A stretch of 59,943 nt of DNA from an uncultured Gammaproteobacteria bacterium (GTDB lineage: Bacteria; Patescibacteriota; Microgenomatia; UBA12405), in NCBI GenBank assembly GCA_964396145.1, contig CAYNEE010000002.1:1-59943 (forward strand), written 5' to 3'. The position numbers were made by a program, and so were the translations under genes. Positions 6,885 through 59,943 of the stretch are shown here, in pieces; positions within the stretch are counted from its first letter, which is position 1; each line of letters opens with the position of its first letter. The notes beneath the pieces were generated by a model, which saw only the letters and a program-made list of their open reading frames with translations, searched no databases and had not been told where the DNA came from.

Positions 6885-6901
6885 GATTAAATATAACACA
6901 T

Positions 6902-7447
6902 CTAAATTCCCTGGGTTCTAATATCAGTAAGCATCGGAGTACTAGTCGCATCAGCATATGCGGTAGGTTTGATGTTGGGATAATTAGAGCTAGAAACCGA
7001 ATAATTAGCTACTTCTGTAAACCCCTCATCAATCGGTCCTTGATTATAAAGATTAGGATCACTTTTATTTTCCAAATTTGCCATTATTTTAAATAGTTTA
7101 GGACAAGGCTCAGTCTCATCATTGCTACCCACAATTATTGGATAGGGCTTACCGTCCGGGTCGCAGGGCCACTTGTTCATCCATGGTTTGAAAAAGTCAC
7201 CGTTACAATAGGCTGGATCAAACATTTTATGTAAATACTGGTTGTAATCCGGATAACAGCCTTTGTCGTTGTAATAATCCTCAAAAGCAATTTTTATCCT
7301 TTCCAAATCGGCCTTCCTTTTAGCGTCCTGCGACCGATTAACCATCGCCGCCGGCTTAAAAATACCCAAAGCTATAACCATTAAAATCATTAAAATAGCC
7401 ATTACAATAATTACCTCCACCAAGCTTATCGCTTTCTTTTGTTTCAT
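6902..7447 (-). CDS. Prepilin-like protein (minor pilin candidate)
   Basis: The N-terminus MKQKKAISLVEVIIVMAILMILMV has E+5 and a hydrophobic helix. The C-terminal domain contains Cys residues. Confidence 0.65.
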   Translation of the reverse strand: MKQKKAISLVEVIIVMAILMILMVIALGIFKPAAMVNRSQDAKRKADLERIKIAFEDYYNDKGCYPDYNQYLHKMFDPAYCNGDFFKPWMNKWPCDPDGKPYPIIVGSNDETEPCPKLFKIMANLENKSDPNLYNQGPIDEGFTEVANYSVSSSNYPNIKPTAYADATSTPMLTDIRTQGI

Positions 7448-7466
7448 AAACTATTCTAACCTTTTC

Positions 7467-8234
7467 TCAAAAAAATAAATTAATAATTTTTTCTCCCCAA
7501 AAATAGGCGATAATTGTCCCTAAAATTAAAAAAGGGCCAAATGGAATAGGGGAGAGCCGGCCCATTTTTTTTCTTGACATCAATATCAACCCTATAATCG
7601 AACCACTAATAAATGCTATATAAAAAGCCACTATAATTTTTGGAAAACCTAAAAATAAACCCATAAACAGCGCCAGCAAAACATCCCCCTCACCCATGGC
7701 CTGTTGGCCTTTAATTTTAATTTTCGTCAAAAGCCAGATAAAAAACCCGGCACCCAGAGCACTCCACCACTCAGTCATCGGCAATCCCAACATTCTTCGT
7801 CTCAGTTCCGCCAAGATTATTAACGGAACCGCCGTCGCATCCGGAATCATCATATACCCAATGTCAAAAGCCGCCTCAAACACCAGCAAACTCCAAATGA
7901 TTAACAATACTACTAATAATATGCCCCCTCTTTGGAAATTGAAATTTGTTTGGTTATTGTAGATTTGGTTATTAGTTATTGCAAACAATATCCCCGTCAC
8001 CACCTCCACCATTGGATAATAACTTGGCAATTTTTTCCCACAACATCGGCTTTTGCCTTTATATACTATAAATGAGAGTAGGGGAATATTGTCATAAAAT
8101 TTCAGGGGTTTTTGACAAAAATCACAATAGCTCCGTTGCTCTTTTACAATTGATTTTTTATGTCCCAGCCGCCACAGCACCATGTTAATAAAACTCCCCA
8201 CACACAAACCCAAAATAAATAAGACTAAAGTCAT
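7467..8234 (-). CDS. pilD: Prepilin peptidase / N-methyltransferase (A24 family)
   Basis: 255-aa polytopic protein. It has an N-terminal Cys-rich motif (CDFCQKPL...DNIPLLSF...CCGKKL) and a Gly-rich C-terminal half typical of PilD/GspO. It lies within the pilin array. Confidence 0.85.
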   Translation of the reverse strand: MTLVLFILGLCVGSFINMVLWRLGHKKSIVKEQRSYCDFCQKPLKFYDNIPLLSFIVYKGKSRCCGKKLPSYYPMVEVVTGILFAITNNQIYNNQTNFNFQRGGILLVVLLIIWSLLVFEAAFDIGYMMIPDATAVPLIILAELRRRMLGLPMTEWWSALGAGFFIWLLTKIKIKGQQAMGEGDVLLALFMGLFLGFPKIIVAFYIAFISGSIIGLILMSRKKMGRLSPIPFGPFLILGTIIAYFWGEKIINLFF

Positions 8235-8249
8235 AACTTATTGTAAACC

Positions 8250-8282
8250 AAAAAAATTCCCCTCCTTTAATCAAAGGAGGGG
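8250..8282 (-). terminator. Rho-independent terminator or attenuator downstream of the major pilin gene
   Basis: The minus strand reads CCCCTCCTTT-GATT-AAAGGAGGGG, a perfect 10-bp stem, followed by AATTTTTTT. It lies between the pilin stop (8308) and the pilD start (8234). It is also copy 1 of the G-rich hairpin repeat family. Confidence 0.7.
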
Positions 8283-8307
8283 ATTAAGGGGTAGATTTAT
8301 TTTCCCT

Positions 8308-8928
8308 TTACTCCGGTACACACATCATGTTAGCCACAGTAGCACTAGGTGCTAAAGTCGCATCCACCCAGGTAGTCGGCAAGACACAGGTAGCACTCTG
8401 AGGTGAAATCGTCATAGCTCCAGTATCCAAACACTTCAACTTACCTCCTTGTTCACCGGTCCTGTTAGCCTTGGCTTTAGGAAAGAAACAGACATAATTG
8501 GTGTCCGTTCCATCGGTATAAGCGTAAAACATATCAACTGGCTTGGCGTTATCCTTAAAAGGAGCCTTGTTCAGAAAAGAGGTCTTAATTTCAGAAGTCT
8601 GAACTAAAGGAGAATCCGTAGTTCCGACATGGTTTACAAAAGCTGTCCCCACCACTCCAAACATGGGTACATTTCCTCGCATCACCTGAGCTGTTCCCGC
8701 TGGAATAGTCGTCCCCGAACCTGAATTCCAGGCATAGGCGTTTTGAGAAGCAAAGTAACGTTCATGAGCACTTAAAACTTCAGCCGCATCATTTTTAAAT
8801 TGGGAATCGCGGGCTTTATTGGTCTGTTCAATAGGATTTAAAGTTGCCAAAACTGCGACCGACAATATGGCAATTAAGGTGATAACTATCAATAGTTCCA
8901 CCAATGTAAAAGCTTTTCGCATTATCAT
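8308..8928 (-). CDS. Type IV pilin, probable major subunit
   Basis: N-terminus M(IM)RKAFTLVELLIVITLIAILSVAVLATLNPIEQ. It is the first pilin gene after pilC, is followed by its own terminator, and has a C-terminal Cys pair. Confidence 0.8.
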   Translation of the reverse strand: MIMRKAFTLVELLIVITLIAILSVAVLATLNPIEQTNKARDSQFKNDAAEVLSAHERYFASQNAYAWNSGSGTTIPAGTAQVMRGNVPMFGVVGTAFVNHVGTTDSPLVQTSEIKTSFLNKAPFKDNAKPVDMFYAYTDGTDTNYVCFFPKAKANRTGEQGGKLKCLDTGAMTISPQSATCVLPTTWVDATLAPSATVANMMCVPE

Positions 8929-8970
8929 TTTTTTTAAAATTTTTAACTAACTTATACCATTGTGGCATTT

Positions 8971-10185
8971 TTAAACGGAAGATGTCAAGGTATAGATAGG
9001 CATAATCACCGCCACCACCAAAAACCCGACCCCGATACCTAAAACTACCATGATAAGAGGCTCTATCGCTGCCGTCAGAGCCTTGACCGCTTCCTCAGCC
9101 TCTTTAGTAAAATAATCGGAAACCTTCATCAACACCTCATCCAATTTTCCCGTCGCCTCACCAGTGGAAATCATTTGATTAACAATTGGAGGGAAAATAC
9201 CTGTATTTTCAAAAGAAACTGCTACCGAAAAACCTTTTTGTACCTTTTCGGCAATTTCCAGAAAAGCTTTTTTATAAACCTCATTACCGGACACCGTTGC
9301 CACAATTTTTAAAGCCTCAACTAAAGTAATTCCGGCTGTCAACAACATGGATAAAGTCCGGGTAGTATTGGCCAAAACTGATTTTTCATTTAACACCCCC
9401 ATAATTGGAATTTTTAGTAATAATTTATCTCGGCGCAAATGAAATGCCTGACTATTCATGCCGACCCTATAAGCCATAAACAATCCCACGCCTATTAACG
9501 GAAACATAAACCATAATTTAGCCACAAAACTGGACACATTCATCAGAGCTTGGGTAATCTTTGGCATCTGGGCTGTCCCAAAATCAGCATACATGGCCGT
9601 CATTTTAGGGATTACAAAAATCATCATCACAAAAGCCACAATAATCATGGCCACAATCACGATAACCGGATAAATCATGGCTCCCTTGACCTTGCCTTGA
9701 AACTCACTTTGCCCCTCCATGGTGTCGGCTAATTTATTCATTACTTCATCCAAAACTCCCGCCTCCTCTCCAGCCGAAACAGAGGCAATATAAGCCTCTC
9801 CAAAAACTTTTTTAGAAGCCGAAAGTGATTTTCCTAGAGGCATCCCTCCTCGAACCTCATCCAAAGTCTTTGCCACAATTTGCCCCAAACCACTACCCTC
9901 ATCATATTGGTTTTTTAACAAGGCTAGAGCATCGGTCAGAGCCAACCCAGCTGTCAACATTGTTGATAATTGCCTGGTAAAAGTACTGACTTGTTTCAGA
10001 TTTGCTCTCCCTTTAAAGCTTCGGGTCAATTCAGAAAACATACCTCCTGATTTTGCCTCCACCGATAGGGGAATTAAACCGCTATCCTTAATCGAATCCA
10101 CCACCTCTTTTTTACTGGCCAAATCCAATTCTCCCTTAATTAGTTTTCCACTCCAATCCCTGGCTTTATAAGCAAACTTAGCCAT
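8971..10185 (-). CDS. pilC: Type IV pilus platform protein (GspF/PilC family)
   Basis: 404 aa with two repeats of the T2SS-F domain and three hydrophobic blocks. It overlaps the pilT stop. Confidence 0.9.
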   Translation of the reverse strand: MAKFAYKARDWSGKLIKGELDLASKKEVVDSIKDSGLIPLSVEAKSGGMFSELTRSFKGRANLKQVSTFTRQLSTMLTAGLALTDALALLKNQYDEGSGLGQIVAKTLDEVRGGMPLGKSLSASKKVFGEAYIASVSAGEEAGVLDEVMNKLADTMEGQSEFQGKVKGAMIYPVIVIVAMIIVAFVMMIFVIPKMTAMYADFGTAQMPKITQALMNVSSFVAKLWFMFPLIGVGLFMAYRVGMNSQAFHLRRDKLLLKIPIMGVLNEKSVLANTTRTLSMLLTAGITLVEALKIVATVSGNEVYKKAFLEIAEKVQKGFSVAVSFENTGIFPPIVNQMISTGEATGKLDEVLMKVSDYFTKEAEEAVKALTAAIEPLIMVVLGIGVGFLVVAVIMPIYTLTSSV

Positions 10186-11242
10186 TCTTCTTTAACAGTC
10201 TTAAACTATTAAGAAATTCTTCCGGTTTTAAAGCAAAGCTTGAGGCTAAATGCTCTTCAACCATCCCGCTTTTTACCAACCGGGCTAGTGACATTTCCAA
10301 TCCCACCATACCCTGATCTGCTCCGGTCTGAATAATATTGTCAATCATAAAAGTTTTCCCTTCCCTAATAGTATTGGCTAGAGCCGGATTGGCCATCAAT
10401 ATTTCCGTCGCTACTGCCCGTCGACCATCAATGGTCGGAATTAATCGTTGCGACACCACTGCTGACAACACTGAAGCAAGCTGCATTCTGATCTGGGGCT
10501 TACTACCCTCGGAAAAGACATCAATAATTCTGTCAATTGATTGGGCAGCCGAATTAGTATGTAGAGTCGAAAAAACCAAGTGTCCTGTTTCTGCTACCGT
10601 CAAGGCCAATTGTATAGTTTCCAAATCTCTCATTTCTCCCACAAAAACCACATTTGGATCCTGACGCAACGAAGATTTCAAGGCTCTACCAAAACTGAGA
10701 GTATCCTCTCCCAATTCTCTTTGGGCAATTAGCGACTTTATTGGTCTAATAATATACTCAATCGGATCCTCAATTGTCACAATATTTACCGATTTTTCCT
10801 TGTTAATTTCATTTAGAATCGAGGCTACCGTGGTTGATTTTCCCTGTCCTGTTGGCCCAGTCACCAGCACAAAACCCTGCCTTAATTTAGTAAAAGTTCT
10901 TACCACTTCCGGTAAGCCTAAACTTCCCAGTTCCGGAATTTGGTCAACAATTACCCTCAGAGCACAGGCAAGCTGTCCCTTTTGATTAAAAATATTAACC
11001 CTAAAACGGTATTCTTCCAAAGTTACCGATAAATCCATTTCTTTTTCCACCACAAACCTTTCTTTTTGTTTTTCATTTAACAAAGACAAAATCAATTCCG
11101 GATCATCAATCGATCCAAAAGTACCGATATCAATCAGTGAACCCTGGACTCTCATTTTAGGCACCTGTCCAATCTGTAAATGTATATCCGAAGCGCCATT
11201 TGCAATCGCTAGTTTACAAATCTCTTCTGTTTTTGAATGCAT
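10178..11242 (-). CDS. pilT: Type IV pilus retraction ATPase
   Basis: 354 aa with Walker A GPTGQGKST, the ASDIHL motif and the GHLVFSTLHTN His box. It has no GspE N-terminal domain, which is typical of PilT. Confidence 0.9.
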   Translation of the reverse strand: MHSKTEEICKLAIANGASDIHLQIGQVPKMRVQGSLIDIGTFGSIDDPELILSLLNEKQKERFVVEKEMDLSVTLEEYRFRVNIFNQKGQLACALRVIVDQIPELGSLGLPEVVRTFTKLRQGFVLVTGPTGQGKSTTVASILNEINKEKSVNIVTIEDPIEYIIRPIKSLIAQRELGEDTLSFGRALKSSLRQDPNVVFVGEMRDLETIQLALTVAETGHLVFSTLHTNSAAQSIDRIIDVFSEGSKPQIRMQLASVLSAVVSQRLIPTIDGRRAVATEILMANPALANTIREGKTFMIDNIIQTGADQGMVGLEMSLARLVKSGMVEEHLASSFALKPEEFLNSLRLLKKNG

Positions 11243-11244
11243 TT

Positions 11245-12984
11245 TTAATATTGTGCCACCCGCAAAACTTCGTCTGCAGTGGTAATTCCTTCTAAAACTT
11301 TAACGTAACCATCTTGTTTCATAGTCAACATGCCCTCCTCAACCGCTTGTTTTTGAATCGCCGAGGCCGCCGCATGTTCCACTATTAGTTTACTGATTTT
11401 TTCGCTTATCGGCATGACTTCATAAATAGCAATTCTTCCCATATATCCGGTATTATTACATTTAGTACAGCCCACTGCCTTGGGTATACGCAAAGTTTTA
11501 CCTTCTTTTTTAGCCTTTTCTTCCAACATCCCATATATCGGTCCCAAAGTTTCTTTAAACTCGGTCAAAGTCGCCGGATCAATTTCTACAAATTGCCTAC
11601 ATTCTGGGCAAAGTCTTCTTAAAACCCGCTGGGCTACCACACAAGTTAGTGCTGAAATCAACAAAAACGGCTCCACTCCCATATCTATCATCCGGGGTGG
11701 CGCTCCCGAAGCATCATTAGTATGCAGAGTTGAAAAGACCAAATGTCCAGTCAAAGAAGCGTTAATAGCCAGTTCTGCCGTTTCCGTATCCCGGATTTCC
11801 CCGACCATCATAATATTTGGATCCTGACGTAAAAAAGATCTTAAGGCTGAGGCAAAAGTCAATCCCGCCTGAACGTTTACCTGGACCTGATTAACTCCTT
11901 TCATCTGATACTCAACCGGGTCTTCAATGGTAACTACATTTACCTTTGGAGTCGCCACCTTATCCAAAATTGAATAAAGGGTGGTAGTTTTACCAGAACC
12001 TGTCGGACCGCAGACAATAATAATCCCGTGAGGTCTTTCAATCGCTTCAATTAAATTTTTCAATGCAAGACCCCTTAAACCCAAATCCGGCAAAGAGGGG
12101 ACTTTGGTCGATTTTCTTAGCAAACGCATTACTACCTTTTCTCCGTATGATACCGGCAAAGTCGAGATACGCAAATCAACTTCATTGCCGTCTACGTTAA
12201 TGTTAAAACGTCCATCCTGAGGGATTCTTTTTTCATCAATTTTTAAGTTAGCCAAAATCTTAATCCGGGAAACTACTGCCTCCAACACGTTTCGAGGCAG
12301 TACATATTTTTCCTGTAAAATACCGTCAATCCTATAACGGACCCTCACATTCTCCTCAAGCGGTTCTATATGGACATCAGAAGCCCGGGAGCGGACCGCG
12401 TATTCCAAAATAGTATTAACAATTTTGGCAATCGGTGCCTCTGTTGTTACCGCCTTGTCTGTTTCTGCCTGAATCTTGGCCTCATCAGCCTTTCTCTCAT
12501 CCAAAGCTTTACTCACCTCCGAAGTAATTCCCTTTTCCCTTTCATATTTTTCCTGGATAAAAGCGTCAATTTTAGACTCCAAAGCCATTGCCGCCTTGAT
12601 CCTCAGACCGGTCTTTTTTTCCAAAAACTCAATTGTTTCCAAGTCCAAGGGGTTGGCCATCGCCACTTCCAAAATTTTATTTTTGGGATCCATCCGATAG
12701 GGGACCAGGTGGTACTTTTCAGCTACACTCTGAGCCACCAACGACAACGCCTCTGGAGAAAAGCCGATTTCATCTAAATCTACAAAAGGAATTTTTAAAA
12801 ATTCCGCCTTGTATTTCAAAAAATCTTCTTCTGGAAACAACCTCATCGAACGGATAATCGACTCTTCGTTCTCGCCACTTTTAACCATCTTCAAGCTAAT
12901 TTCCTCAGCCTGAGATTCGTTGATTACCCCCTTATCTAAAAGAAGTTCGCTTAATTTTTTATAGTTTTTTAATTCGGCAGGCAT
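11245..12984 (-). CDS. pilB: Type IV pilus assembly ATPase (GspE/PilB family)
   Basis: 579 aa with a GspE-N domain, Walker A GPTGSGKTT, the GHLVFSTLHTN motif and a tetracysteine motif (CPECRQ...CTKCNNTGY). Confidence 0.9.
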   Translation of the reverse strand: MPAELKNYKKLSELLLDKGVINESQAEEISLKMVKSGENEESIIRSMRLFPEEDFLKYKAEFLKIPFVDLDEIGFSPEALSLVAQSVAEKYHLVPYRMDPKNKILEVAMANPLDLETIEFLEKKTGLRIKAAMALESKIDAFIQEKYEREKGITSEVSKALDERKADEAKIQAETDKAVTTEAPIAKIVNTILEYAVRSRASDVHIEPLEENVRVRYRIDGILQEKYVLPRNVLEAVVSRIKILANLKIDEKRIPQDGRFNINVDGNEVDLRISTLPVSYGEKVVMRLLRKSTKVPSLPDLGLRGLALKNLIEAIERPHGIIIVCGPTGSGKTTTLYSILDKVATPKVNVVTIEDPVEYQMKGVNQVQVNVQAGLTFASALRSFLRQDPNIMMVGEIRDTETAELAINASLTGHLVFSTLHTNDASGAPPRMIDMGVEPFLLISALTCVVAQRVLRRLCPECRQFVEIDPATLTEFKETLGPIYGMLEEKAKKEGKTLRIPKAVGCTKCNNTGYMGRIAIYEVMPISEKISKLIVEHAAASAIQKQAVEEGMLTMKQDGYVKVLEGITTADEVLRVAQY

Positions 12985-14265: not shown

Positions 14266-15396
14266 ATGTTTTCTCCGATATTTACCATTAATAACCAGAT
14301 TTTAAAAAACATCGGTACTCTTGAGGCTGCCAAGGCTGTCATTGATGAGGCACCTCTGATTCCTGCTTACGAAAAACAGTTTCAGCAAGAAGCTGTCATC
14401 CGCACCGTCCATTATGGTACCCGGATTGAAGGTAACGATCTCACTTATCAGGATGTGGCAAAGCTTGTCGAAGGCCGTGAAGTTACTGCTGCCGACCGGG
14501 ATATTCAGGAAGTTATCAATTACAGAAACGTCATTAACTACCTTGAGGAAATTTGGGCCACCTATGACGCCGGATTACCGTTACCAGAAGAAAAATACAA
14601 AGAGGGTATTGACCCTAAAAACAGGCTATTTTTTTACAGTGAAACCATTATCAAAAAGATTCACGAGTTGACCACTGTCAAAATTATCGACGAAGCCGAC
14701 GTCGGTAAATACCGCCGCCAACAGGTCGTTTTAAAAAATACTAAAACCGGCGAAATTGCTCATCGACCCCCTCCGGCTATCGAAGTACCCTATTTGATTA
14801 CCGACTTTGTCGCCTGGTTAAACGACTCCAAATCCAGAGAAATTCATCCGGCTATTAGAGCCGCCATTACTCAATATGTTTTAGTCGCCATCCACCCTTT
14901 TGTTGAAGGAAATGGCCGTGTTTCCCGGGCTTTTGGAATATTACCTCTCTATGTCGAGGGTTATGACATCCGCCGTCTTTTTTCCATTGAAGAATATTTT
15001 GATAGAAACGCCGAAACTTATTACAATACCCTCCAGTCCACCCACGAAAAAAATAGTGACATTTTTGAACGTGACCTGACCGACTGGGTGACCTATTACA
15101 CGGAAGTCTTGGCCATCGAGCTTTCTCGGGTCAAAGACAAAGTCCAGACTCTCTCCCGGGACCTAAAATTCAAACAAAAACTTGGCGGCAAGCAAGTTCA
15201 TTTAACCGAAAGACAAATAAAATTAGTCGAATACATGCAGCAATTTGGCGGCTTACGCATGCCCGATGCCAAATCTCTTTTACCTATGGTTAGTGACGAC
15301 ACCATCTGGCGTGACCTCAAAAAACTTATTGACGATAAGGTCGTCCAAAAACGCGGCTCCACCAAGGGTGCTTATTACTGTCTTAGCAATGTTTAA
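14266..15396 (+). CDS. Fic family protein (AMPylase-type), with a Fic_N-like motif and a C-terminal wHTH-like region
   Basis: The Fic motif HPFVEGNGRVSRA is present (HxFx[D/E]GNGRxxR). An upstream TRIEGN segment resembles the inhibitory motif. A TATAAT box lies at 14249-14254. Confidence 0.9.
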   Translation: MFSPIFTINNQILKNIGTLEAAKAVIDEAPLIPAYEKQFQQEAVIRTVHYGTRIEGNDLTYQDVAKLVEGREVTAADRDIQEVINYRNVINYLEEIWATYDAGLPLPEEKYKEGIDPKNRLFFYSETIIKKIHELTTVKIIDEADVGKYRRQQVVLKNTKTGEIAHRPPPAIEVPYLITDFVAWLNDSKSREIHPAIRAAITQYVLVAIHPFVEGNGRVSRAFGILPLYVEGYDIRRLFSIEEYFDRNAETYYNTLQSTHEKNSDIFERDLTDWVTYYTEVLAIELSRVKDKVQTLSRDLKFKQKLGGKQVHLTERQIKLVEYMQQFGGLRMPDAKSLLPMVSDDTIWRDLKKLIDDKVVQKRGSTKGAYYCLSNV

Positions 15397-37730: not shown

Positions 37731-38210
37731 ATGATAACATTAAAGCAATCTATGATTAAGACTTTGCTTCTGACCGTTTTTTTTGGACTTACCTTGGGCC
37801 TGGGTCTTAGCGGTACCATTTACTATCTCAAACAAAATCAAAAAAACCGTCAAAGTCTATCAACTGTCATTCCCACTCTCAATCCTGATTCTAGCAACAC
37901 CGCTGTCTCTGTTACCCCCATTCCCAACAATCCCGGCTCTTCCGTCCCCCTAAATATTACCTCCCATCAAAATTATGACCTGGTTTCTGCCGCCAAAATC
38001 ACCCTCACTGGCACCACTACCCCAAAAAGCCTTTTAGTCATCACCACACCCAGCCAAAATTATCATTTTTTTGCCGATGACAGCGGAAAATTTTCTCAAA
38101 ACATCACTCTTGATTCCGGCTTTAATACTTTAAATATAAAATCGATTACCCCCGATAATCAGGAAACCCAACTCACTTATTATTTAACCTTTTCTACAGT
38201 CAAAATATAA
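37731..38210 (+). CDS. Hypothetical membrane-anchored surface protein
   Basis: It has an N-terminal TM helix followed by a Ser/Thr/Pro-rich segment. Confidence 0.5.
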   Translation: MITLKQSMIKTLLLTVFFGLTLGLGLSGTIYYLKQNQKNRQSLSTVIPTLNPDSSNTAVSVTPIPNNPGSSVPLNITSHQNYDLVSAAKITLTGTTTPKSLLVITTPSQNYHFFADDSGKFSQNITLDSGFNTLNIKSITPDNQETQLTYYLTFSTVKI

Positions 38211-49219: not shown

Positions 49220-49650
49220 TGAGCCAATTCTTCTTTGACTATTTTGGAAACCAATTCTCCTCCGGCCTGACCGGCGACTGCTTTCATACTTTCCCCCATG
49301 ACTGCACCAAAATTGTTGCCTTTTTCGGCAACTATTTTTTTGACTATTTCTCTTAATTTTGTCTCATCCATTTCCTGAGGCAAATAGCTTTTAACCAACT
49401 CAATTTCCTCTTCCTGCTCTTTGACTAAATCTTGCCGACCACCCTTGGCAAACATTGTCTTAGCCTCTTCCTTGTTTTTAAGCTCTTTTCGAAGTACGTT
49501 AATTTCCTCTGCTTCACTCATCTCACCTGGAGGTAACTGCAGTGCCCTTTTGTCAATCAAAGACACCAAAAACCTCAGGGCGTTTGCCTTTTTGCCATTA
49601 CCTGATTTTAACGCTTCAACTGCTTGATTTTTGATTTGATCACACAACAT
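49216..49650 (-). CDS. GatB/YqeY domain protein
   Basis: 144 aa. The pattern ALRFLVSLI...LRKELKNKEEAKTMFAKGGRQDLVKEQEEEIELVKSYLP is typical of YqeY. Confidence 0.7.
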   Translation of the reverse strand: MLCDQIKNQAVEALKSGNGKKANALRFLVSLIDKRALQLPPGEMSEAEEINVLRKELKNKEEAKTMFAKGGRQDLVKEQEEEIELVKSYLPQEMDETKLREIVKKIVAEKGNNFGAVMGESMKAVAGQAGGELVSKIVKEELAQ

Positions 49651-49855
49651 ATTTTCGGGATTTTTTAGCTCTCTTGCGACACCTTTCTCTCCACAAGATT
49701 ACTTTTTTTTGAGCATAACGGACTTCTGATGGTTTTTCATAAGCCGCCCTTTTACGGACTTCTTCTGTAATATCCTCCTCCATGCACAGCCGTCGGAATT
49801 TACCGATAATATCATCTTTAGTTTCGCCTTTTTTTCTTTTGACAATTATGGGCAT
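49640..49855 (-). CDS. rpsU: Ribosomal protein S21
   Basis: MPIIVKRKKGE...FRR...YEKPSEVR. A strong SD (AAGGAGGTG) lies upstream. Confidence 0.8.
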   Translation of the reverse strand: MPIIVKRKKGETKDDIIGKFRRLCMEEDITEEVRKRAAYEKPSEVRYAQKKVILWRERCRKRAKKSRKYVV

Positions 49856-49892
49856 CAAATCACCTCCTTAAACTCTGCTATTTTACCTGTCT

Positions 49893-50564
49893 TTACTGAC
49901 TTTGTAAACACTTGGCTCTATCAAGACTATTGACTACCCCATCATTGTTTAAATCTCCAGGAGACACACACTTTACCGTTGGTATCGGAGTCGTCGCCGT
50001 TCCTCCCTGACCCTTTTGACAGAACATATAGTCCAAGCTATTAACCACTCCATCCTTATTATAATCAGTACTCCGGTCACAAACTCCAGCAGCCCCTGTC
50101 GGCCTAATCCCCACCGATGAGGTAGGTGTGGGAGCTGTTGTTATCACAGGTAAGACAGTCCCTGAAGGTGTCGCTCCTTTAGTTTTAAAAGAATATGGAA
50201 TCCCATTATTATCAAATTGCTCCTCACCTATCTTGATCCTAAAATAATAGTTAGTATTAGCCTTTAGGGAACTTAAAGTTACTGAATGATTGGTCACCGC
50301 CTCACTTTCAGGTGCTCTCAACAATAAACTTGCTGGAGTGGTCCCGTATTCCACCACCCCCATATTGGCTTTGTCAGATACCCAAGTAATCACTGCACTC
50401 TTACCGTCTTCACCAGCTTTAGCCAGCACATTCTTAGGTTCCGTAGCTGCAGAAGCTCCACTAAAAAAAGTTTTGGCAGTTGTCATGCCTACAACCCCCA
50501 ATACTCCCACCAAAAGCATAATCACAATGATAATGATCGTTTTTACAGTCGGTTTCTTGGTCAT
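49893..50564 (-). CDS. Surface protein: signal anchor, Fn3/PAP_N-like domain, PT linker and a two-repeat dockerin-like module
   Basis: VITWVSDKANMGVVEYG...TNYYFRIK, then DYNKDGVVNSLD and DLNNDGVVNSLD. Both repeats fit the DxNxDGxxNxxD Ca-binding loops of dockerins. Confidence 0.65.
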   Translation of the reverse strand: MTKKPTVKTIIIIVIMLLVGVLGVVGMTTAKTFFSGASAATEPKNVLAKAGEDGKSAVITWVSDKANMGVVEYGTTPASLLLRAPESEAVTNHSVTLSSLKANTNYYFRIKIGEEQFDNNGIPYSFKTKGATPSGTVLPVITTAPTPTSSVGIRPTGAAGVCDRSTDYNKDGVVNSLDYMFCQKGQGGTATTPIPTVKCVSPGDLNNDGVVNSLDRAKCLQSQ

Positions 50565-51223
50565 AACCTTCTCAAAGCTAGTGAAGATAATACCCCGATT
50601 ACACCCATAACCATCAACACAATTGTATTTTCTACTGTTCCAGTTTTAGGCAATTCTCCGGCTGGTGGAGCGGTAGTTACCTGTGCCTGTGGAGCTGTTG
50701 TCCCGTCATTTGCCACAATATTATATAGTCCATTCTGATTACTGCTACACACAATTAAATCTTGAAGACTCGTTTCGTTCCAAATATTTGAATCCTTACT
50801 CTCCCCAGGTGTACAGCTAAAATTGGCAGGAGCACTACCTAGCGCCTTGGCCTTAAAAGTCAACACAGCTAAATCACCATTCAGAGGCGTCATCTCGTAA
50901 GTAATTGAATCACGAGGTCCAAAATTAGTTGCAAATTTACCAGCCACATTATCTATTTGTACATCTCCCATAGAAAAATCAAATGCCGGACTAGGAGCCT
51001 TGTCTAAAGAAATAAGCTCTAATCTAGTATTATCAAAAGTACCCCAAGTATCCACCATTTGTGACTTGTTACCTCCAGAATCCACGGCAATCATCACTTT
51101 AAAAGTATCCCCTATCTTGTAGGTTCCTGCACTGGGCACAAACTTTAAAACCGCATTAGCAGCTAAAACCTTGTTAGCTGGAAAGAGAAATAAAACTAAT
51201 AATATTGCTAGTATCCTTTTCAT
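50561..51223 (-). CDS. Cohesin-like domain protein with a C-terminal LPXTG sortase anchor
   Basis: Signal peptide ...NKVLA, then AVLKFVPSAGTYKIGDTFKVMIAVDS...FDNTRLELISL...GDLAVLTFKAKALGSAPANF (cohesin-like pattern). The C-terminus is LPKTG, a hydrophobic stretch, then RRL. Confidence 0.55.
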   Translation of the reverse strand: MKRILAILLVLFLFPANKVLAANAVLKFVPSAGTYKIGDTFKVMIAVDSGGNKSQMVDTWGTFDNTRLELISLDKAPSPAFDFSMGDVQIDNVAGKFATNFGPRDSITYEMTPLNGDLAVLTFKAKALGSAPANFSCTPGESKDSNIWNETSLQDLIVCSSNQNGLYNIVANDGTTAPQAQVTTAPPAGELPKTGTVENTIVLMVMGVIGVLSSLALRRL

Positions 51224-51762
51224 TTACTTAAATAAGGTAACACTTTTGCACTGCTGTTTTCAACCAAATTAGTTTTGGAGTCAATTGAAAGACTTGCTTC
51301 AGGTGACAACGGTTTTATGTCAAACTCCACAATCCCAATTTCCTTGTTAGCTGTTAATTTATAACCATCCTTTTCCACAATCAAATAATTGGCTACTATC
51401 AAAAATTTGTCACGACTATCTTTTATAAAAGCCGGAGCCGGTAAAACCCCCGCATTTTTAAGATTACTAATTTCCATACCCTTGTAATTTACATAAAGAT
51501 CAATTGCCCCTAAAGATTGGTCATTTTTAGAAACTAACATTAAGACTCTATGATTTCCCTGTTCTTTCCAATAAAAACTGATGTCAGCCTCTGAAATTGG
51601 GGTTACAGTACCTATTGTCTCTTTCTCAACCATAGTCGGAGTCGTGTTTACAACTTCTAGACTTTGGTTATTTTTATTAGTTCTGGATAAAAATATAACG
51701 CTTTCTACTATGACTACAATCGATATTAATACAATCGGCCAAAATAATTTATTGTTTTTCAT
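51220..51762 (-). CDS. Membrane-anchored hypothetical protein (possibly a second cohesin-like beta-sandwich)
   Basis: N-terminal TM helix, then LGAIDLYVNYKGMEISNL...IGIVEFDIKPLSPEASLSI. A 4-nt overlap links it to the downstream gene. Confidence 0.4.
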   Translation of the reverse strand: MKNNKLFWPIVLISIVVIVESVIFLSRTNKNNQSLEVVNTTPTMVEKETIGTVTPISEADISFYWKEQGNHRVLMLVSKNDQSLGAIDLYVNYKGMEISNLKNAGVLPAPAFIKDSRDKFLIVANYLIVEKDGYKLTANKEIGIVEFDIKPLSPEASLSIDSKTNLVENSSAKVLPYLSK

Positions 51763-51766
51763 AAAT

Positions 51767-52933
51767 TTAATATAATTGTCCTTGCTTTTTAGCCAAGGTC
51801 AGCCTTAATAAATTAACATCATTAGTATTTACCTGGCAGTTTCCGTCCAAATCACCTTTTAGATTCTGTCCATCAGCCACTGTAACCAATTTAGCTGATT
51901 GATTCTTTACATAGATAAAGTCAATTCCGTTTACTTCTCCGTCCTGTTCCTCACTATCCTTACCTACCACATCTCCAGGCAAAATCGGATAGTCCGTAAA
52001 ATCATACCAAGGGCTGGTAGCGGGGTCATTAGTCATGGTAATTTCACCTGTATACTTACCCGCCGCCTCACTTTGTTTATTTTTATAATATTTCATTTGT
52101 AAGTGTTTACTCCCTTTAAAGAGTGCTGACACACTATCAGTGTAAGCAAAATCTTTAAGTGGCACACTACCCTTAAACACTACCCTGTCTTCTTTATCAA
52201 TCACTTCTTGAGGAATTATGTTGTTATAAGCTTTCCTGTTCTGATCACCGTGCTGAACTATAAGCTGCAAAGGCCAGTCAACTAAACACTTATGGTCATT
52301 GGGTCTAATCCCATAATAACTAACCATGTAATTCAAAACTGGGTCTCCAGTGGGAACTACCACACCATCAGTAATCTCATACTCACCATTACCGGTAATG
52401 TTCCCATCTAAAAGTTTTTCAGCACTTCCTGGAGCATAAATAGTTCCCCTAGAATCCTCTTTAACCAGGGTTATTGCCCTGGGACCACCTTTTTTAACCG
52501 CATCAAAATTCAAAGTTATGGCCTGACCTGCATCCTTAAGATTGGCCGTACAAGTCGTCGCTGTATCATCGGCTACCACTGTTACAAAAGTACAAGTTAA
52601 ACCTGCACTATTAGTCGGTAATGTCTTACTTAAAGCCACACTTCTGAAACCATTGGCCGTAACCCCAGTTGCGCCCTTAAAAACAATCTCTGGACCATAA
52701 CAAACTTTCGTTTGTACGGTTTCTACCTTGGAATTAGCAGGTCCTGAATAGCTAATCACATAACTTAATTTTTCACCAACCTTTTTAGTTATCCGTGTTC
52801 CTGGCGAAATAAACAAATTCAATACACCGGCCGCCGCTCCTTTTCTCACATCCTGGTTTTGCTTAACCAAAAGTAAACCACCCCCGACTGCTGTCAGTAA
52901 TAAAAGTGTTAATATGATTTTCCCTACTTTCAT
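51767..52933 (-). CDS. Surface protein with a single C-terminal dockerin-like repeat
   Basis: The start is taken at MKVGKIILTLLLLTAVGG. The C-terminus carries DLDGNCQVNTNDVNLLRL. Confidence 0.55.
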   Translation of the reverse strand: MKVGKIILTLLLLTAVGGGLLLVKQNQDVRKGAAAGVLNLFISPGTRITKKVGEKLSYVISYSGPANSKVETVQTKVCYGPEIVFKGATGVTANGFRSVALSKTLPTNSAGLTCTFVTVVADDTATTCTANLKDAGQAITLNFDAVKKGGPRAITLVKEDSRGTIYAPGSAEKLLDGNITGNGEYEITDGVVVPTGDPVLNYMVSYYGIRPNDHKCLVDWPLQLIVQHGDQNRKAYNNIIPQEVIDKEDRVVFKGSVPLKDFAYTDSVSALFKGSKHLQMKYYKNKQSEAAGKYTGEITMTNDPATSPWYDFTDYPILPGDVVGKDSEEQDGEVNGIDFIYVKNQSAKLVTVADGQNLKGDLDGNCQVNTNDVNLLRLTLAKKQGQLY

Positions 52934-52937
52934 TATC

Positions 52938-54254
52938 TTATTTAAACATAGTAATATAATTATTTTTCCAAATTTCATAGTCGGCCATAGTGACCAATCC
53001 GTCACAATTGAAATCAGCTTTCCAGTTGTTCCTGGTACTGGGATCAGTACCACACTTGGCTACATTAAACTCATCTCTCCAAATGGAATAATCCATCAAA
53101 TCAACCGAACCACTACAGTTAGCATCACCCTTACCCTTAGCCGTAGCATCAGAACACTGAGTACATTTAGAAGTCGCTGTACACTTAGTTAAATCTGTAG
53201 TCCAATTTCCTCCAACAGCCGGACAGCAATAATCTCTGCCTCCGCAAGCCATTTTCATACCTGCCGCAGTACATAAAGTATCCTGAGGTGTTCCGTCGGA
53301 ATCGGGAGGAGTACAATTTCTAAGCTTGTTACCATTATTTGGATCAGGACAGGCTTGAGCCCCAGGACATTTATCAGATACCGGAGGCTTAGATGGAGGT
53401 TGAGTCACCACAATCGGCGGATTTGCCGGTTTACAGATTCCGCTTGAACAATTTTTACTATTACATTGAGTATTGTTAGTACACTTACAATTATCCGGTC
53501 TATTGGTCAATAAACTACAGTTCTCTATACATTGAGGGTAAGCCAAACCCTCATCGGTACAAGTCAAACCAGAACAGCAAGACCGAGTCGAACAAGGCTT
53601 ACCACTACCAGCACAAACCACCGGTGTCGGTGTCGGAATAGGGATATAAGTTGGAATTTCAGTTCTAGGCACACACCGAGGATACGATAAACCCTCATCA
53701 GTACATACATCAGTCGACAAACAACACGATCTAGTGGAACATGCCTGACCAGATTTCGCACAAGGAATCGGAGTCGGAGTTGCTGGCCGAGGAGTATTGG
53801 TTGGTACAGCCGTTGGCCTTATTCCGCACCTATTATCACCACAATAGCCGCTAGCACACAAACTGTGTCCATTACAGTAACAACCATTAGGTCTACCGGT
53901 CGCCCTGCCACAAGGATCAACAGGTAAATTAGCACAAACACCATCTCCGCAATACCCGCTACAACAATTAGAATTGTTACTACACCCAGAACCATTATTC
54001 CTACACCGAGGAGTGGTTGGAATACTTGTAGGAACTCTGGTAGGTGCTACTCCTCCACATCTTCCTCCATTACATATTCCCGAACAACACTCACCATTAT
54101 ATCTACAAGAATGATTCGCTGGACCACATCCACCAGCCGCCTGATTTCTACTATCCTGATTCTCTTGAACTAATTTCGTGGCTACTGGAATCGCAATAGC
54201 CATTACCAACAAACCTAAAATCAAGGGAATTTGAGCTAAACCTTTTCTTTTCAT
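52938..54254 (-). CDS. Membrane-anchored protein with multiple cysteine-knot-like modules separated by PT linkers and a C-terminal two-repeat dockerin-like module
   Basis: The start is taken at MKRKGLAQIPLILGLLVMAIAI. Modules include CGPANHSCRYNGECCSGICNGGRC and CRNNGSGCSNNSNCCSGYCGDGVC. The C-terminus has DANCSGSVDLMD and DFNCDGLVTMAD. Confidence 0.65.
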   Translation of the reverse strand: MKRKGLAQIPLILGLLVMAIAIPVATKLVQENQDSRNQAAGGCGPANHSCRYNGECCSGICNGGRCGGVAPTRVPTSIPTTPRCRNNGSGCSNNSNCCSGYCGDGVCANLPVDPCGRATGRPNGCYCNGHSLCASGYCGDNRCGIRPTAVPTNTPRPATPTPIPCAKSGQACSTRSCCLSTDVCTDEGLSYPRCVPRTEIPTYIPIPTPTPVVCAGSGKPCSTRSCCSGLTCTDEGLAYPQCIENCSLLTNRPDNCKCTNNTQCNSKNCSSGICKPANPPIVVTQPPSKPPVSDKCPGAQACPDPNNGNKLRNCTPPDSDGTPQDTLCTAAGMKMACGGRDYCCPAVGGNWTTDLTKCTATSKCTQCSDATAKGKGDANCSGSVDLMDYSIWRDEFNVAKCGTDPSTRNNWKADFNCDGLVTMADYEIWKNNYITMFK

Positions 54255-54324
54255 TGTTCTAATTTCAACTATTTCTGCTTTCAGTTTTACATGTTTACCA
54301 TACCAGGTCAATAGATCAAATTCA

Positions 54325-54342
54325 TATACTATATATAGTATA
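54325..54342. promoter_or_regulatory. Perfect 18-bp palindrome TATACTATATATAGTATA in the divergent promoter region
   Basis: It lies between the divergent starts at 54254 (minus strand) and 54359 (plus strand). The two 9-nt halves are exact reverse complements. Confidence 0.35.
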
Positions 54343-54358: not shown

Positions 54359-55690
54359 ATGAAATCAAAAAGTACCAAGACCCTCATCCTCCTTCTCCTT
54401 CTCCCCTTTCTACTTTTTGCTCTTAAAACTATTCTCGACATCCGCAAATCAGCCTCAGGTGTTCCCGCCAATATCATCATCAACACTCAATCTTTAGGCA
54501 CAAATATAAACGGAAGTCTCTGGAAAAATCTGGCCCAAGGTGGTGAAGAAGCCAAAGACATGATTGGCCCCGTCGCTACTAAACTCCAATCTCTCCAGCT
54601 CCAATTAATCCGTATTGATCATCTTTTTGATTATTACCAGGTTGATCAGGGCAATGGCCAATACGATTTTTCTCGACTTGACCAAGCTGTCAATAGTATT
54701 TTAGCGACAGGCGCCAAACCCATGCTGTCTTTATCCTACACCCCCGATTCCAAGGAACCCGGTGATTGGAACCAGTGGAATCGCTTAATTGAGGCTACTG
54801 CCCGACATTATTCAGTTGAAAAAAATATCTCCGGAATTTATTACGAAGTTTGGAACGAACCCGATCTCTTTGGTGGCTGGCACTATGGCCGTTCTCCCAA
54901 CTATCTCACTCTCTATAAAAATACCTCTTTGGCTGTAAAAAGAGGAGCTGGAAATAGTTCCTATAAAATAGGCGGTCCGGCTATTACTGCCTACTACAAT
55001 AATTGGATTAAAGCTCTCTTTAAATTTGCCGCCGCCAATAATTTACCTCTGGATTTTATTTCCTGGCATAAATATTCTTTTAATTCTGATGATTATGTCC
55101 GTGATTTTGAAAATTTAAATTCAATTCTTGCCGACTACCCTCAATATTTTAATATTGAAAGGTTAATTACCGAGCTTGGCCCCAATTCCGAACCCGACTC
55201 TGCTTACGACAACTCTCTTAGTGGCATTCATCTCATTTCTCTCTCTACTAAACTTTATGGAAAAATCCATCGCATTTTTACTTTTGAAGCTGTCGATGGA
55301 CCCTCTGCCCGCTCAGATAAATCCACAGGTTGGGGAATTCTTTCCCACAGTGGTCAAATTAAACCTCGTTACCAGGCTCTTCAGTTTCTCAACCAAATTA
55401 GCGGCACTCAATTAGCCCACGAAGGCGACGGTACTTGGGTTACTTCTCTCTCTTCCAAAAAAAGCACTACTATCCAAACTCTTCTCGTCAACTACGACCC
55501 TAAACTCAGCCACATCGAAACCACCCCCATTACTTATCAAGGTTTAACTCCAGGCAAATATCTCTTAAAAACCAGCCAATATTTAGGCAATAATAATCAA
55601 AAAATTATCGATGTAATCAGTGATCACTACACCGAAAACATTTATCTTAACCCCAACACTGCTTATTTTCTTGAGCTAACTAAAAACTAG
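54359..55690 (+). CDS. Membrane-anchored clan GH-A glycoside hydrolase (GH39/GH5-like)
   Basis: N-terminal TM helix, YYEVWNEPDLFGGW (NEP acid/base motif), and later RLITELGPN (candidate nucleophile Glu). Confidence 0.55.
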   Translation: MKSKSTKTLILLLLLPFLLFALKTILDIRKSASGVPANIIINTQSLGTNINGSLWKNLAQGGEEAKDMIGPVATKLQSLQLQLIRIDHLFDYYQVDQGNGQYDFSRLDQAVNSILATGAKPMLSLSYTPDSKEPGDWNQWNRLIEATARHYSVEKNISGIYYEVWNEPDLFGGWHYGRSPNYLTLYKNTSLAVKRGAGNSSYKIGGPAITAYYNNWIKALFKFAAANNLPLDFISWHKYSFNSDDYVRDFENLNSILADYPQYFNIERLITELGPNSEPDSAYDNSLSGIHLISLSTKLYGKIHRIFTFEAVDGPSARSDKSTGWGILSHSGQIKPRYQALQFLNQISGTQLAHEGDGTWVTSLSSKKSTTIQTLLVNYDPKLSHIETTPITYQGLTPGKYLLKTSQYLGNNNQKIIDVISDHYTENIYLNPNTAYFLELTKN

Positions 55691-59020: not shown

Positions 59021-59943
59021 CTAGGGTAGCCACTCGGGTTTAGAAGGTAACGACATTAAATGTCCAGCTTGATTGTTTGGATCTTTTACAAACCAAGCCA
59101 AGGCATATCTAAACGTTTTATCGTAATTAGTATCTGTTTTGTCCAGAAGCCAATACCGATCAACCATAAAATATGCCGCTTCTACATCGTTTTGTCCGAT
59201 TTCCATCTTAATTATCTCGCCGAGTTTCTCATCTTTGAGAGTATAAAGCACTGGTATCGAACAAGCCGGGCCATGATAATCACCACCTGCTGTTGAAGGT
59301 ATTCCCCATTTACTTACATTTTGAATGAACTCCTTATAAGTTAAATTATCCGGAGCATCATCAGTAACCCAATACCATTTATGGTAATGAGGCCACATTC
59401 GGATGTAAGTCAGTGAGTATTTTCCCTGAACATTGTCATTGACATTATTAGTGTTATACACCTGATTATTGGCCACTATCCGGGTACTTTTATTCATACA
59501 AGCAACCACTAAATAGGTACTGCCAACAGGTGCTTCACAACCACCGCCTTCAGCCGGTCGACATTGTTCCGCTCCAGTGACCATGGCTATACATTGACCA
59601 TCTTCAGGAACATCTTCCCGTCGAGCACCTTCGCAAGAATTCTCCTCACAAACTGCCTTCAAATCCACGGGTGTCTTTGTTGGTTGTGGTGTTGGAGTTG
59701 GAACTTGCGGAGTCGGTGTCGGAGGCGTAGGAGTCGAGGGTGTTGGAGTTGGCGGAGTCGGTGTCGGAGGCGTAGGAGTCGAGGGTGTTGGAGTAATATT
59801 CCGACTTTCAGTTTCCGTTGTCTCTGAACAGACTTGTTGGTTGTACTTGTCTTTGACAGTAACTGTTCGAGTGCGGATTTCCTTTGACGAATCGCTGGGA
59901 TCTACACTCCAGGCTGACCATTCACCATAGAAGGTTTCTGTGT
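59021..59943 (-). CDS. Surface protein, partial (N-terminus beyond the right window edge), with a Pro/Thr tandem-repeat linker and a Cys-containing C-terminal domain
   Basis: The frame stays open upstream of the track's internal Met at 59668, through PTPTPSTPTPPTPTP repeats to the window end. Confidence 0.7.
   Translation of the reverse strand, partial: TETFYGEWSAWSVDPSDSSKEIRTRTVTVKDKYNQQVCSETTETESRNITPTPSTPTPPTPTPPTPTPSTPTPPTPTPQVPTPTPQPTKTPVDLKAVCEENSCEGARREDVPEDGQCIAMVTGAEQCRPAEGGGCEAPVGSTYLVVACMNKSTRIVANNQVYNTNNVNDNVQGKYSLTYIRMWPHYHKWYWVTDDAPDNLTYKEFIQNVSKWGIPSTAGGDYHGPACSIPVLYTLKDEKLGEIIKMEIGQNDVEAAYFMVDRYWLLDKTDTNYDKTFRYALAWFVKDPNNQAGHLMSLPSKPEWLP
59707..59794. repeat. 45-bp tandem repeat (about 2 units) encoding the PT-rich linker
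   Basis: gcggagtcggtgtcggaggcgtaggagtcgagggtgttggagttg at 59707-59751 is repeated from 59752. Confidence 0.85.

Follow-up and report, generated by a model that had tools for sequence, protein, structure and literature searches.

A Clade-Wide Five-Gene Cohesin-Dockerin Cluster in Candidatus Shapirobacteria as a Candidate Non-Enzymatic Surface Display System

Introduction

In Ruminococcus flavefaciens the ScaE protein is reportedly attached through an LPXTG signal. The cohesin of ScaE is bound by the dockerin of ScaB (PMC5429695). The use of cohesin-dockerin modules outside cellulosomes is already known, as are the individual parts and the logic by which an LPXTG-anchored cohesin is combined with an X-dockerin protein. 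Here a cluster of five genes is described on a 59,943-nt stretch (~60 kb) of contig CAYNEE010000002.1, hereafter the window, in which three cohesins and three dockerins are encoded side by side. The five genes probably specify a self-contained, non-enzymatic cohesin-dockerin assembly on the cell envelope, which would display a species-specific binder with which the cell attaches to, or recognizes, a host or surface.

The manner in which ultra-small bacteria of the candidate phyla radiation (CPR; Patescibacteria) attach to and recognize their hosts is largely obscure beyond a few cultured Saccharibacteria. Full-text searches of the literature returned no description of the five-gene cluster, and among the matches listed for cohesin, dockerin or scaffoldin neither Microgenomates nor Microgenomatia was mentioned. 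The cluster is a compact candidate surface apparatus, comprising five genes and six modules, and is present across a CPR class at one and the same place on the chromosome.

Results

Five Genes Encode Three Cohesins and Three Dockerins

The minus-strand block at 49893-54254 contains five genes, designated A to E, with the following products.

52938-54254, minus strand: A, 438 aa, with an N-terminal hydrophobic anchor or signal, a cysteine-rich body and a C-terminal dockerin.
51767-52933, minus strand: B, 388 aa, a predicted adaptor scaffoldin (hhalign, AlphaFold2 [AF2] and Foldseek, and Dockerin_1 matches in the family).
51220-51762, minus strand: C, 180 aa, with one N-terminal transmembrane (TM) helix and a divergent cohesin at residues ~60-178 (nt 51229-51585).
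50561-51223, minus strand: D, 220 aa, an anchoring scaffoldin (Pfam, TIGRFAM, AF2 and Foldseek).
49893-50564, minus strand: E, 223 aa, with Pur_ac_phosph_N and Dockerin_1 domains.

Pfam and NCBIfam were run on the proteins of the window, and homologues were examined with family-level hidden Markov models (HMMs). The six interaction modules in the block were identified by family-level HMMs or by structure. Three are cohesins, located in D, at the N-terminus of B and in C, and three are dockerins, located in A, B and E, each of which possesses two tandem calcium loop-helix repeats matching PF00404. A preceding sequence-only reading of the same DNA had listed one cohesin, that of D; the module itself stands, but the inventory was incomplete as the B N-terminus and C also are cohesins. 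In a six-frame scan of the window, dockerin-type calcium loops were confined to A, B and E and a C-terminal LPXTG was confined to D. The pattern therefore is not an accident of composition. NCBIfam returned LPXTG matches and nothing else among the window proteins.

D Is a Cohesin with an LPXTG Sorting Signal and B a Predicted Adaptor Scaffoldin

The D protein consists of a cleavable-type signal peptide, a cohesin at residues 23-172 (nt 50708-51157), a linker, and a sorting signal in which LPKTG (residues 191-195, nt 50639-50653) is followed by 21 mostly hydrophobic residues and then by RRL. This combination of motif, hydrophobic stretch and basic tail is that of an LPXTG surface protein, and D scored 22.9 bits against Gram_pos_anchor (PF00746; cutoff 20) and 18.6 bits against TIGR01167 (cutoff 15.9). 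Residues L191, P192, T194 and G195 of the motif were invariant in an alignment of 26 homologues. The window copy yielded 16.7 bits with Cohesin (PF00963), which is under the cutoff of 24.1; within the family, the domain was matched by 23 of the 26 homologues with a best E value of 4e-10. A profile of the D family searched against Protein Data Bank (PDB) sequences recovered nothing, and the cohesin identity came from the fold search: with the AF2 model of D (mean predicted local distance difference test [pLDDT] 85) all of the 50 best PDB entries in Foldseek were cohesins, with E values down to 8.6e-9 and template modeling scores, normalized to the target, of 0.6-0.76. These matches included the ScaE cohesins of R. 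flavefaciens (2zf9, 4iu2/4iu3) and a non-cellulosomal cohesin of Archaeoglobus fulgidus. D thus joins a family-level HMM match to a nine-stranded beta-sandwich fold that can be superposed on solved cohesins, and the cohesin-like domain with a sortase signal that had been proposed from the sequence was upheld by the family matches, the fold and the Gram_pos_anchor score.

The B protein begins with a signal or anchor, which is followed by a cohesin at residues 35-190 (nt 52364-52831), an immunoglobulin (Ig)-like X module at residues 198-317 (nt 51983-52342) and a two-repeat dockerin at residues 318-388 (nt 51770-51982). By hhalign, residues 31-191 share homology with the cohesin family of D (probability 96%, E value 2.5e-9). 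Cohesin (PF00963) was matched by three of 34 family members and Dockerin_1 by 28 of the 34 (best 5.8e-7), with the window copy scoring 17.2 bits for Dockerin_1, below the cutoff. The AF2 model (pLDDT 88) has three confident domains, and its top Foldseek matches were 3kcp_A and 4fl4, which contain the Coh9-X-DocII segment of CipA (E value 2e-11 over ~356 columns); single cohesins ranked next. Because the model matches CipA CohI9-X-DocII, B has the layout of an adaptor scaffoldin, in the order cohesin, X module and dockerin, the last two forming an X-dockerin dyad. The sequence-only reading rightly ended B in a dockerin but credited it with a single repeat, because the first dockerin loop of the window copy holds an insertion. 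Both repeats are visible in the alignment of orthologues and both helices were seen, so that the dockerin is a full two-repeat module, and the N-terminal cohesin had been overlooked. One B homologue bears an S-layer homology (SLH) domain. In the lineage of loci L011 (7697-9427), L013 and L015 the B-like protein has a cysteine-rich N-terminal extension and retains the conserved C-terminal half with the dockerin.

A Carries a Variable Cysteine-Rich Body

The A protein comprises an anchor or signal (residues 1-41), a cysteine-rich region (residues 43-367) and a dockerin (residues 372-438, nt 52941-53141). It contains 49 cysteines, which constitute 11% of its residues. The body is built from four strict C-C-CC-C-C modules, two C-x9-C-x-C-x5-C-x4-C-x4-C modules and a larger 10-Cys domain that are separated by Pro/Thr linkers. 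An array of cysteine modules with such linkers had been recognized previously; the array was retained but the estimate of at least five strict modules was revised to four strict modules, two variants and the 10-Cys domain. The C-terminal dockerin proposed for A was corroborated at 23.0 bits for Dockerin_1 with the full protein (cutoff 22.9) and 27.7 bits with the C-terminal 80 aa. Dockerin_1 also was matched by 12 of 16 orthologous C-termini, and a profile of the 16 matched only dockerins in the PDB (4fl4_A, 3.4e-5).

Across species only the first ~40 residues and the dockerin of A are conserved, and the intervening body, in which the cysteine-rich modules differ, measures anywhere between 363 and 1626 aa. 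The modules of the window copy reproduce the framework of the inhibitor cystine knot (ICK) toxins 6nk9 and 1hvw with an E value of ~0.2 which is not significant. The six-Cys framework is present four times, and the score with Pfam Conotoxin_I2 was 14.9 bits (cutoff 27). The ICK-like framework was observed in the window and nearer relatives only: it was missing from distant A orthologues and occurred in none of 697 other open reading frames (ORFs) in related loci. In the L011/L013/L015 lineage A is short at 201 aa. Hypervariation of A within a population was considered and rejected, as contigs from six samples (public runs) were 99.6-100% identical across the cluster.

The N-terminus of A (54132-54254, and the same place in L007-L028) has ~40 residues that are far better conserved than the body. 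They follow the pattern of a variable basic leader, G/A, and [LFI]AQ[IL]PL..GLL.MA.A.PVATKLVQ.NQDTRN.AA. The tail motif LV.QNQ[DE].R[RK]GA of this pattern also is found on B. Among the window and 23 loci, the N-terminal motifs were detected on A and B only, apart from one chance match each in unrelated ORFs of L026 and L029. The layout of leader, G/A and hydrophobic segment is conserved and resembles that of prepilins, with proline at +5. A was rejected as a canonical type IV pilin in view of this proline and of the lack of any match to PF07963 or NCBIfam models, whereas the genuine pilins of the window do match PF07963.

E Bears a Cysteine-Clasped Dockerin and C Is a Membrane-Anchored Cohesin

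E is the best conserved member of the cluster, the opposite of A. A highly conserved hydrophobic N-terminus precedes a domain resembling fibronectin type III (Fn3) and the purple acid phosphatase N-terminal domain (residues 43-128, nt 50181-50438), a Pro/Thr linker and a dockerin (residues 162-219, nt 49908-50081). Pur_ac_phosph_N was matched at 39.3 bits and Dockerin_1 at 33.6 bits, both over the cutoff, in agreement with the Fn3-like domain and dockerin loops read from the sequence beforehand. In the dockerin an invariant cysteine pair brackets each of the two calcium loops, the invariant residues being C162, D167, N169, D171, N175, D178, C182, C199, D204, N212, D215 and C219. The Fn3 motif EYGTTPASLLLR and the TM segment likewise are invariant. 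Homologues of E number 539, are ~220 aa in length, and share the same two domains; those with an NCBI name are listed either as fibronectin type III domain-containing protein or as hypothetical. The best PDB match of the tail was a cellulosomal dockerin, 2y3n_B.

The C protein of the window had no Pfam match. In its family Cohesin was matched by 45 of 71 representatives (best 1.8e-10), the top PDB entries with the family profile were cohesins (5lxv_A, 9e-4; 4ums, 3e-3), and hhalign gave 86% to the D family and 90% to the B cohesin. The suggestion that C is a TM-anchored, beta-sandwich-like protein therefore was right as regards the anchor, and the fold can be specified further as a cohesin on the strength of the family matches and the PDB profile. 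The family is small, with 80 representatives in an exhaustive search that span 66-217 aa, most of 170-217 aa; the exceptions are two outliers, at 510 and 628 aa, with weak matches in several stretches. Midway along the TM helix (51684-51762) a Glu-Ser pair (E20, S21) is near-invariant in 71 family members, which suggests a helix-helix contact with another membrane protein.

Rate Covariation Points to a Possible Wall-D-B-A Hierarchy

Pairing of the modules was assessed by rate covariation across orthologous clusters in partial Mantel tests with housekeeping divergence controlled. The B dockerin and D cohesin covaried with r 0.72 in 12 taxa (p 0.0002) and r 0.66 in 21 taxa (p 0.0003), and were the top pair in every jackknife. 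The A dockerin covaried best with the B cohesin (r 0.31-0.36; r 0.36 with 15 taxa, p 0.005). As unrelated cohesin pairs reach r ~0.5, the B-D signal alone is clearly above background. The covariation is suggestive, not proof, that the B dockerin binds the D cohesin, and more weakly points to binding of the A dockerin by the B cohesin.

The assembly that we propose would proceed as follows. All five proteins would be exported via Sec, and a sortase encoded elsewhere would join D to peptidoglycan. The X-dockerin of B then could plug into the D cohesin, in the manner of CipA with SdbA in Clostridium thermocellum and of ScaB with ScaE in R. flavefaciens, and the dockerin of A could plug into the cohesin of B. 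With the A dockerin so placed, the variable disulfide-rich body of A would come to lie at the distal end of a wall-D-B-A chain. By elimination only, E may pair with the membrane cohesin C close to the membrane. Through A, the assembly would enable the cell to attach to a host cell or surface, or to recognize it, and would not serve the breakdown of polysaccharide. This role is suggested by the enzyme-free cargo, by the variability of A between species and by the episymbiosis of cultured CPR relatives. A small wall-anchored cohesin-dockerin display system with non-enzymatic cargo also was the overall conclusion of the sequence-only reading, and it is supported by the Cohesin matches, the fold of D, the LPKTG signal, the dockerins and the lack of catalytic domains.

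The presence of both a cohesin and a dockerin on B raises the alternative of a pilus-like filament, in which B would polymerize head to tail with D as the base and A as the tip, or which would be a relative of the CPR Pam pilus assembled by donor-strand exchange. The D/B/A series suits a logic of base, shaft and tip, and Pam pilins, which combine a nine-strand beta-sandwich with an Ig-like domain, are present in Microgenomatia (bioRxiv 10.64898/2026.03.03.709456). Nevertheless, the B dockerin and B cohesin failed to covary (r -0.20, n = 18) whereas the B dockerin and D cohesin did so, and self-polymerization of B was rejected for want of that signal. The cluster includes no gene for a PapD-like chaperone or an RbmA-like terminator, the pam operon adjoins ATP synthase genes rather than frr and rpsU, and the best structural match of B is the Coh-X-Doc segment of CipA. 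Identity with the Pam pilus, judged from the description of the latter only, also was rejected: the cluster has no chaperone-like gene, C is a cohesin with an N-terminal TM helix, and the neighborhoods differ. A pilus-like filament consequently is quite improbable.

The Five Genes Form One Operon-Like Unit

The five genes make up a single operon-like unit that is conserved, as is the promoter that belongs to it. The stop codon of A (52938-52940) is separated by 4 nt from the ATG of B at 52933, and the stop of B at 51767 by 4 nt from the ATG of C at 51762, whereas C and D (51220-51223) and D and E (50561-50564) overlap by ATGA. The tight packing of the co-oriented genes that had been noted earlier thus holds, and so do the starts that had been re-assigned to 52933 for B and 54254 for A: the orthologues open with MK.GKI.L and MKRKGLAQIP, respectively. 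The start of A is further backed by the finding that TTG 54311, at which the longer frame opens, is part of a conserved -35 box. The elements upstream of A are the following.

54284-54311, minus strand: sigma-70-type promoter of the A-E operon, recognized by conservation upstream of A.
54325-54342, no strand: perfect 18-bp palindrome, TATACTATATATAGTATA, in the A/GH39 intergenic region, found by direct reading and a custom script.

The promoter comprises a -35 box, TTGACC (54306-54311), and a -10 box, TAAAAC (54284-54289), that is preceded by TG. The motif TTGAyCTATTGAC-N16/17-TG-TAAAACT lies upstream of A in 11 related, otherwise diverged loci. A generic scan for promoters and terminators gave output at chance level which did not include the site, and the promoter therefore is assigned by conservation alone.

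The palindrome, which likewise had been described before and proved to be genuine, is placed 17-34 nt upstream of the start codon of the divergent glycoside hydrolase gene. It is kept in L007, occurs as a 20-bp variant in L012 and with one mismatch in L010, and is missing from more distant loci, so that it is conserved in close relatives only. In the output of the inverted-repeat tool the 18-bp palindrome did not appear as such. The element could be the -10 region of the GH39 promoter or an operator.

At the other end of the unit, a promoter-like site at 49880-49908 overlaps the terminus of E. Read-through from the surface cluster into the housekeeping genes may occur. In L009 an additional ORF of 306 aa (1507-2424), which has a short E-like stretch, is interposed between E and rpsU.

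The Cluster Is Fixed Among Housekeeping Genes

Homologues of D in genomes of species in the Genome Taxonomy Database (GTDB) belong almost entirely to Candidatus Shapirobacteria (Microgenomates, CPR). The order frr, rseP, GH39 (divergent), A, B, C, D, E, rpsU, yqeY and ybeY recurs in 22 of 23 loci as far as the contigs reach. The cluster therefore is fixed and vertically inherited in Shapirobacteria among housekeeping genes. Nine of the contigs (L008, L009, L012, L018, L021, L024, L026, L028 and L029) are filed as 'uncultured Gammaproteobacteria', 'Pseudomonadales' or 'Candidatus Methanoperedens'. They have the Shapirobacteria gene order with housekeeping proteins that are 50-80% identical, and contigs under these titles probably are mislabeled or belong to contaminated bins.

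The setting of the cluster bears on a serious, if unlikely, alternative in which the proteins would be structural elements of the envelope that form a housekeeping wall-membrane tether or surface layer on which envelope integrity depends, the cohesin-dockerin contacts tying the membrane (through C and the helices at the N-termini of A, B and E) to peptidoglycan (through D). The cluster always is located between frr-rseP and rpsU-yqeY-ybeY. The gap between the E stop and rpsU (49640-49858) is only ~34 nt (49859-49892) and includes a strong AAGGAGG ribosome-binding site. The superior conservation of E, the invariance of its TM segment and of EYGTTPASLLLR, the conserved TM segment of A and the Glu-Ser pair within the C helix further favor a tether, as do the SLH domain of the B homologue and the precedent of Southlakia, a saccharibacterium for which a protein with a dockerin domain is essential (PMC10633639). 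Conversely, the extreme variability of the A body between species is more typical of an outward-facing recognition protein.

Other observations also count against a display assembly with A at its tip. Taken alone, the D and B modules in their window copies fall short of the Pfam cutoffs. The E dockerin covaries with none of the three cohesins, non-partner cohesin pairs also reach r ~0.5, and rate covariation is an indirect measure. The N-terminal hydrophobic segments of A, B and E are unusually well conserved, and perhaps are anchors that stay uncleaved in the membrane, in which case the topology would differ. A structural role in the envelope would agree just as well with the fixed position among housekeeping genes and with the strong conservation of E. 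Moreover, no sortase was detected in the window or within 10 kb to either side in the 23 loci when six frames of each were searched with a TLxTC regular expression, together with Pfam on 20 mid-size ORFs of the window; the sequence-only reading likewise had located no sortase gene in the window. A family of sortases reportedly is almost ubiquitous among Microgenomates, and DsbA-like and VKOR proteins are common in CPR (Meheust et al., 2019; PMC6744442). These enzymes, as reported for Microgenomates and CPR, would serve the LPXTG signal of D and the many extracellular cysteines.

The Divergent Glycoside Hydrolase and the Enzyme-Free Cargo

The gene on the other side of the intergenic region is described below.

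54359-55690, plus strand: glycoside hydrolase family 39 (GH39) protein, 443 aa, with an N-terminal signal or anchor (Glyco_hydro_39, 83.9 bits).

The divergently transcribed glycosidase, considered earlier to be GH39- or GH5-like, thus is a genuine GH39 enzyme. In comparisons with the PDB it matched GH39 beta-xylosidases with an E value of 2e-19 and PslG weakly. All loci that extend to that side have it in the same divergent position, and it is a conserved neighbor whose membership of the system is uncertain.

Cohesin-dockerin systems classically are cellulosomal, and a genuine GH39 enzyme as a conserved divergent neighbor is compatible with a minimal cellulosome-like complex that degrades glycans. 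However, Pfam and the six-frame loop scan of the window disclosed no dockerin in GH39. Pfam detected no catalytic or carbohydrate-binding module (CBM) domain in A, B and E themselves, nor in ten ORFs of related loci that resemble A, B, D or E, and Shapirobacteria have very sparse metabolism (PMC6744442). A mini-cellulosome with GH39 was rejected since the enzyme lacks a dockerin and the cargo lacks catalytic domains, and we consider a glycan-degrading complex highly improbable.

Other Features of the Window

The window contains a complete type IV pilus gene set that occupies 6069-12984 (minus strand) together with 3384-3881 and 4291-4794. The set includes genes for a PilB-like ATPase (11245-12984), a PilT-like protein (10178-11242), a PilC-like protein (8971-10185) and a prepilin peptidase (7467-8234), along with several pilins whose N_methyl motifs have Ala, not Gly, at -1 (RKA|FTLVE).

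Two further loci encode putative surface or secreted proteins. The 3' part of a gene that leaves the window (59021-59943, minus strand) specifies a long PT-repeat linker (PTPSTPTPPTPTPPTP...) and a 215-aa cysteine-containing C-terminal domain with no Pfam match; the product probably is another secreted surface protein. At 37731-38210 (plus strand) a small secreted beta-sandwich, cadherin-like or Glucodextran_B-like, is encoded in which '...YYLKQNQKNRQSLS' follows the hydrophobic segment at the N-terminus. This product has a post-TM 'QNQxxR' motif as on A and B, and the motif may be typical of the lineage and serve in export or processing. At 14266-15396 (plus strand) lies the gene for a Fic/DOC-family protein of 376 aa.

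Discussion

The display assembly makes definite predictions, namely that cohesins and dockerins form three pairs, that the hierarchy is wall-D-B-A and that the tip is variable. A broader proposal, which we advance tentatively and regard as doubtful in its entirety, is that Shapirobacteria, and perhaps other CPR, could have re-purposed cellulosome modules as a clade-wide envelope nanostructure for epibiosis. The membrane (C and E) and wall (D) would be connected by a non-covalent chain through B to a fast-evolving, disulfide-knotted tip, A, that would set the host or surface recognized, and host range would evolve by swapping of A bodies between the conserved N-terminal anchor and the dockerin. 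If the cluster is only a structural tether, it still is clade-defining but is less informative about host interaction. For the study of cohesins and dockerins, the cluster offers a natural, minimal and enzyme-free system with three apparently orthogonal pairs, a membrane cohesin and a Cys-clasped dockerin. These features could shed light on how cellulosomal modules evolved and provide new orthogonal building blocks for protein assembly.

Comparison with Known Systems

The ScaE-ScaB pair of R. flavefaciens is closely comparable. Like ScaE, D has a single cohesin and an LPXTG signal, and like ScaB, B has an X module and a dockerin; the B dockerin and D cohesin covary, and ScaE cohesins are among the structural matches of D. 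In contrast, the Shapirobacteria set has no attached enzymes or CBMs, B has one cohesin instead of many, and there is an extra membrane cohesin in C. The set resides in a CPR bacterium whose genome is reduced, and its cargo comprises an array that resembles cysteine knots together with an Fn3 protein. The CohI9-X-DocII segment of C. thermocellum CipA bound to the type II cohesin of SdbA (3KCP, 4FL4) aligns with B over all three modules in the same order. However, the identity is ~12%, the first dockerin loop of B has an insertion, and the anchor D would depend on LPXTG and sortase whereas the CipA system uses SLH.

Non-cellulosomal modules provide a second point of comparison. The A. fulgidus cohesin 2XDH and the cohesins of Clostridium perfringens glycosidases (2VO8/2JH2) were among the structural matches, and the minimal system of Cellulosilyticum lentocellum (PMC13487519) also exemplifies the use of cohesins and dockerins outside classical cellulosomes. 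The Shapirobacteria cluster differs in possessing a full set of three cohesins and three dockerins in one operon, with no enzyme partner and a single chromosomal position across the clade.

Pam pili (bioRxiv 10.64898/2026.03.03.709456) resemble the proposed assembly as a CPR-specific surface structure whose subunits have an Ig-like domain behind a nine-strand beta-sandwich; they also have paired cysteines and reported homologues in Microgenomatia. They are set apart, by description, in their use of donor-strand exchange and PapD-like chaperones and in their location beside ATP synthase genes, whereas the A-E cluster encodes dockerins and an LPXTG anchor, lacks chaperones and lies in another neighborhood. 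The ICK peptides omega-atracotoxin-Hv1a (1HVW) and Aca toxin 1 (6NK9) share the C-C-CC-C-C framework and similar spacing with four modules of A. Nevertheless, this likeness is not significant (E value ~0.2), and the modules of A differ in being arrayed in a large bacterial surface protein and in being missing from distant A orthologues. Set beside these systems, what is new is the enzyme-free operon set of three cohesins and three dockerins, with its membrane-anchored cohesin, Cys-clasped dockerin and hypervariable Cys-knot-like cargo, at one fixed site across a CPR lineage.

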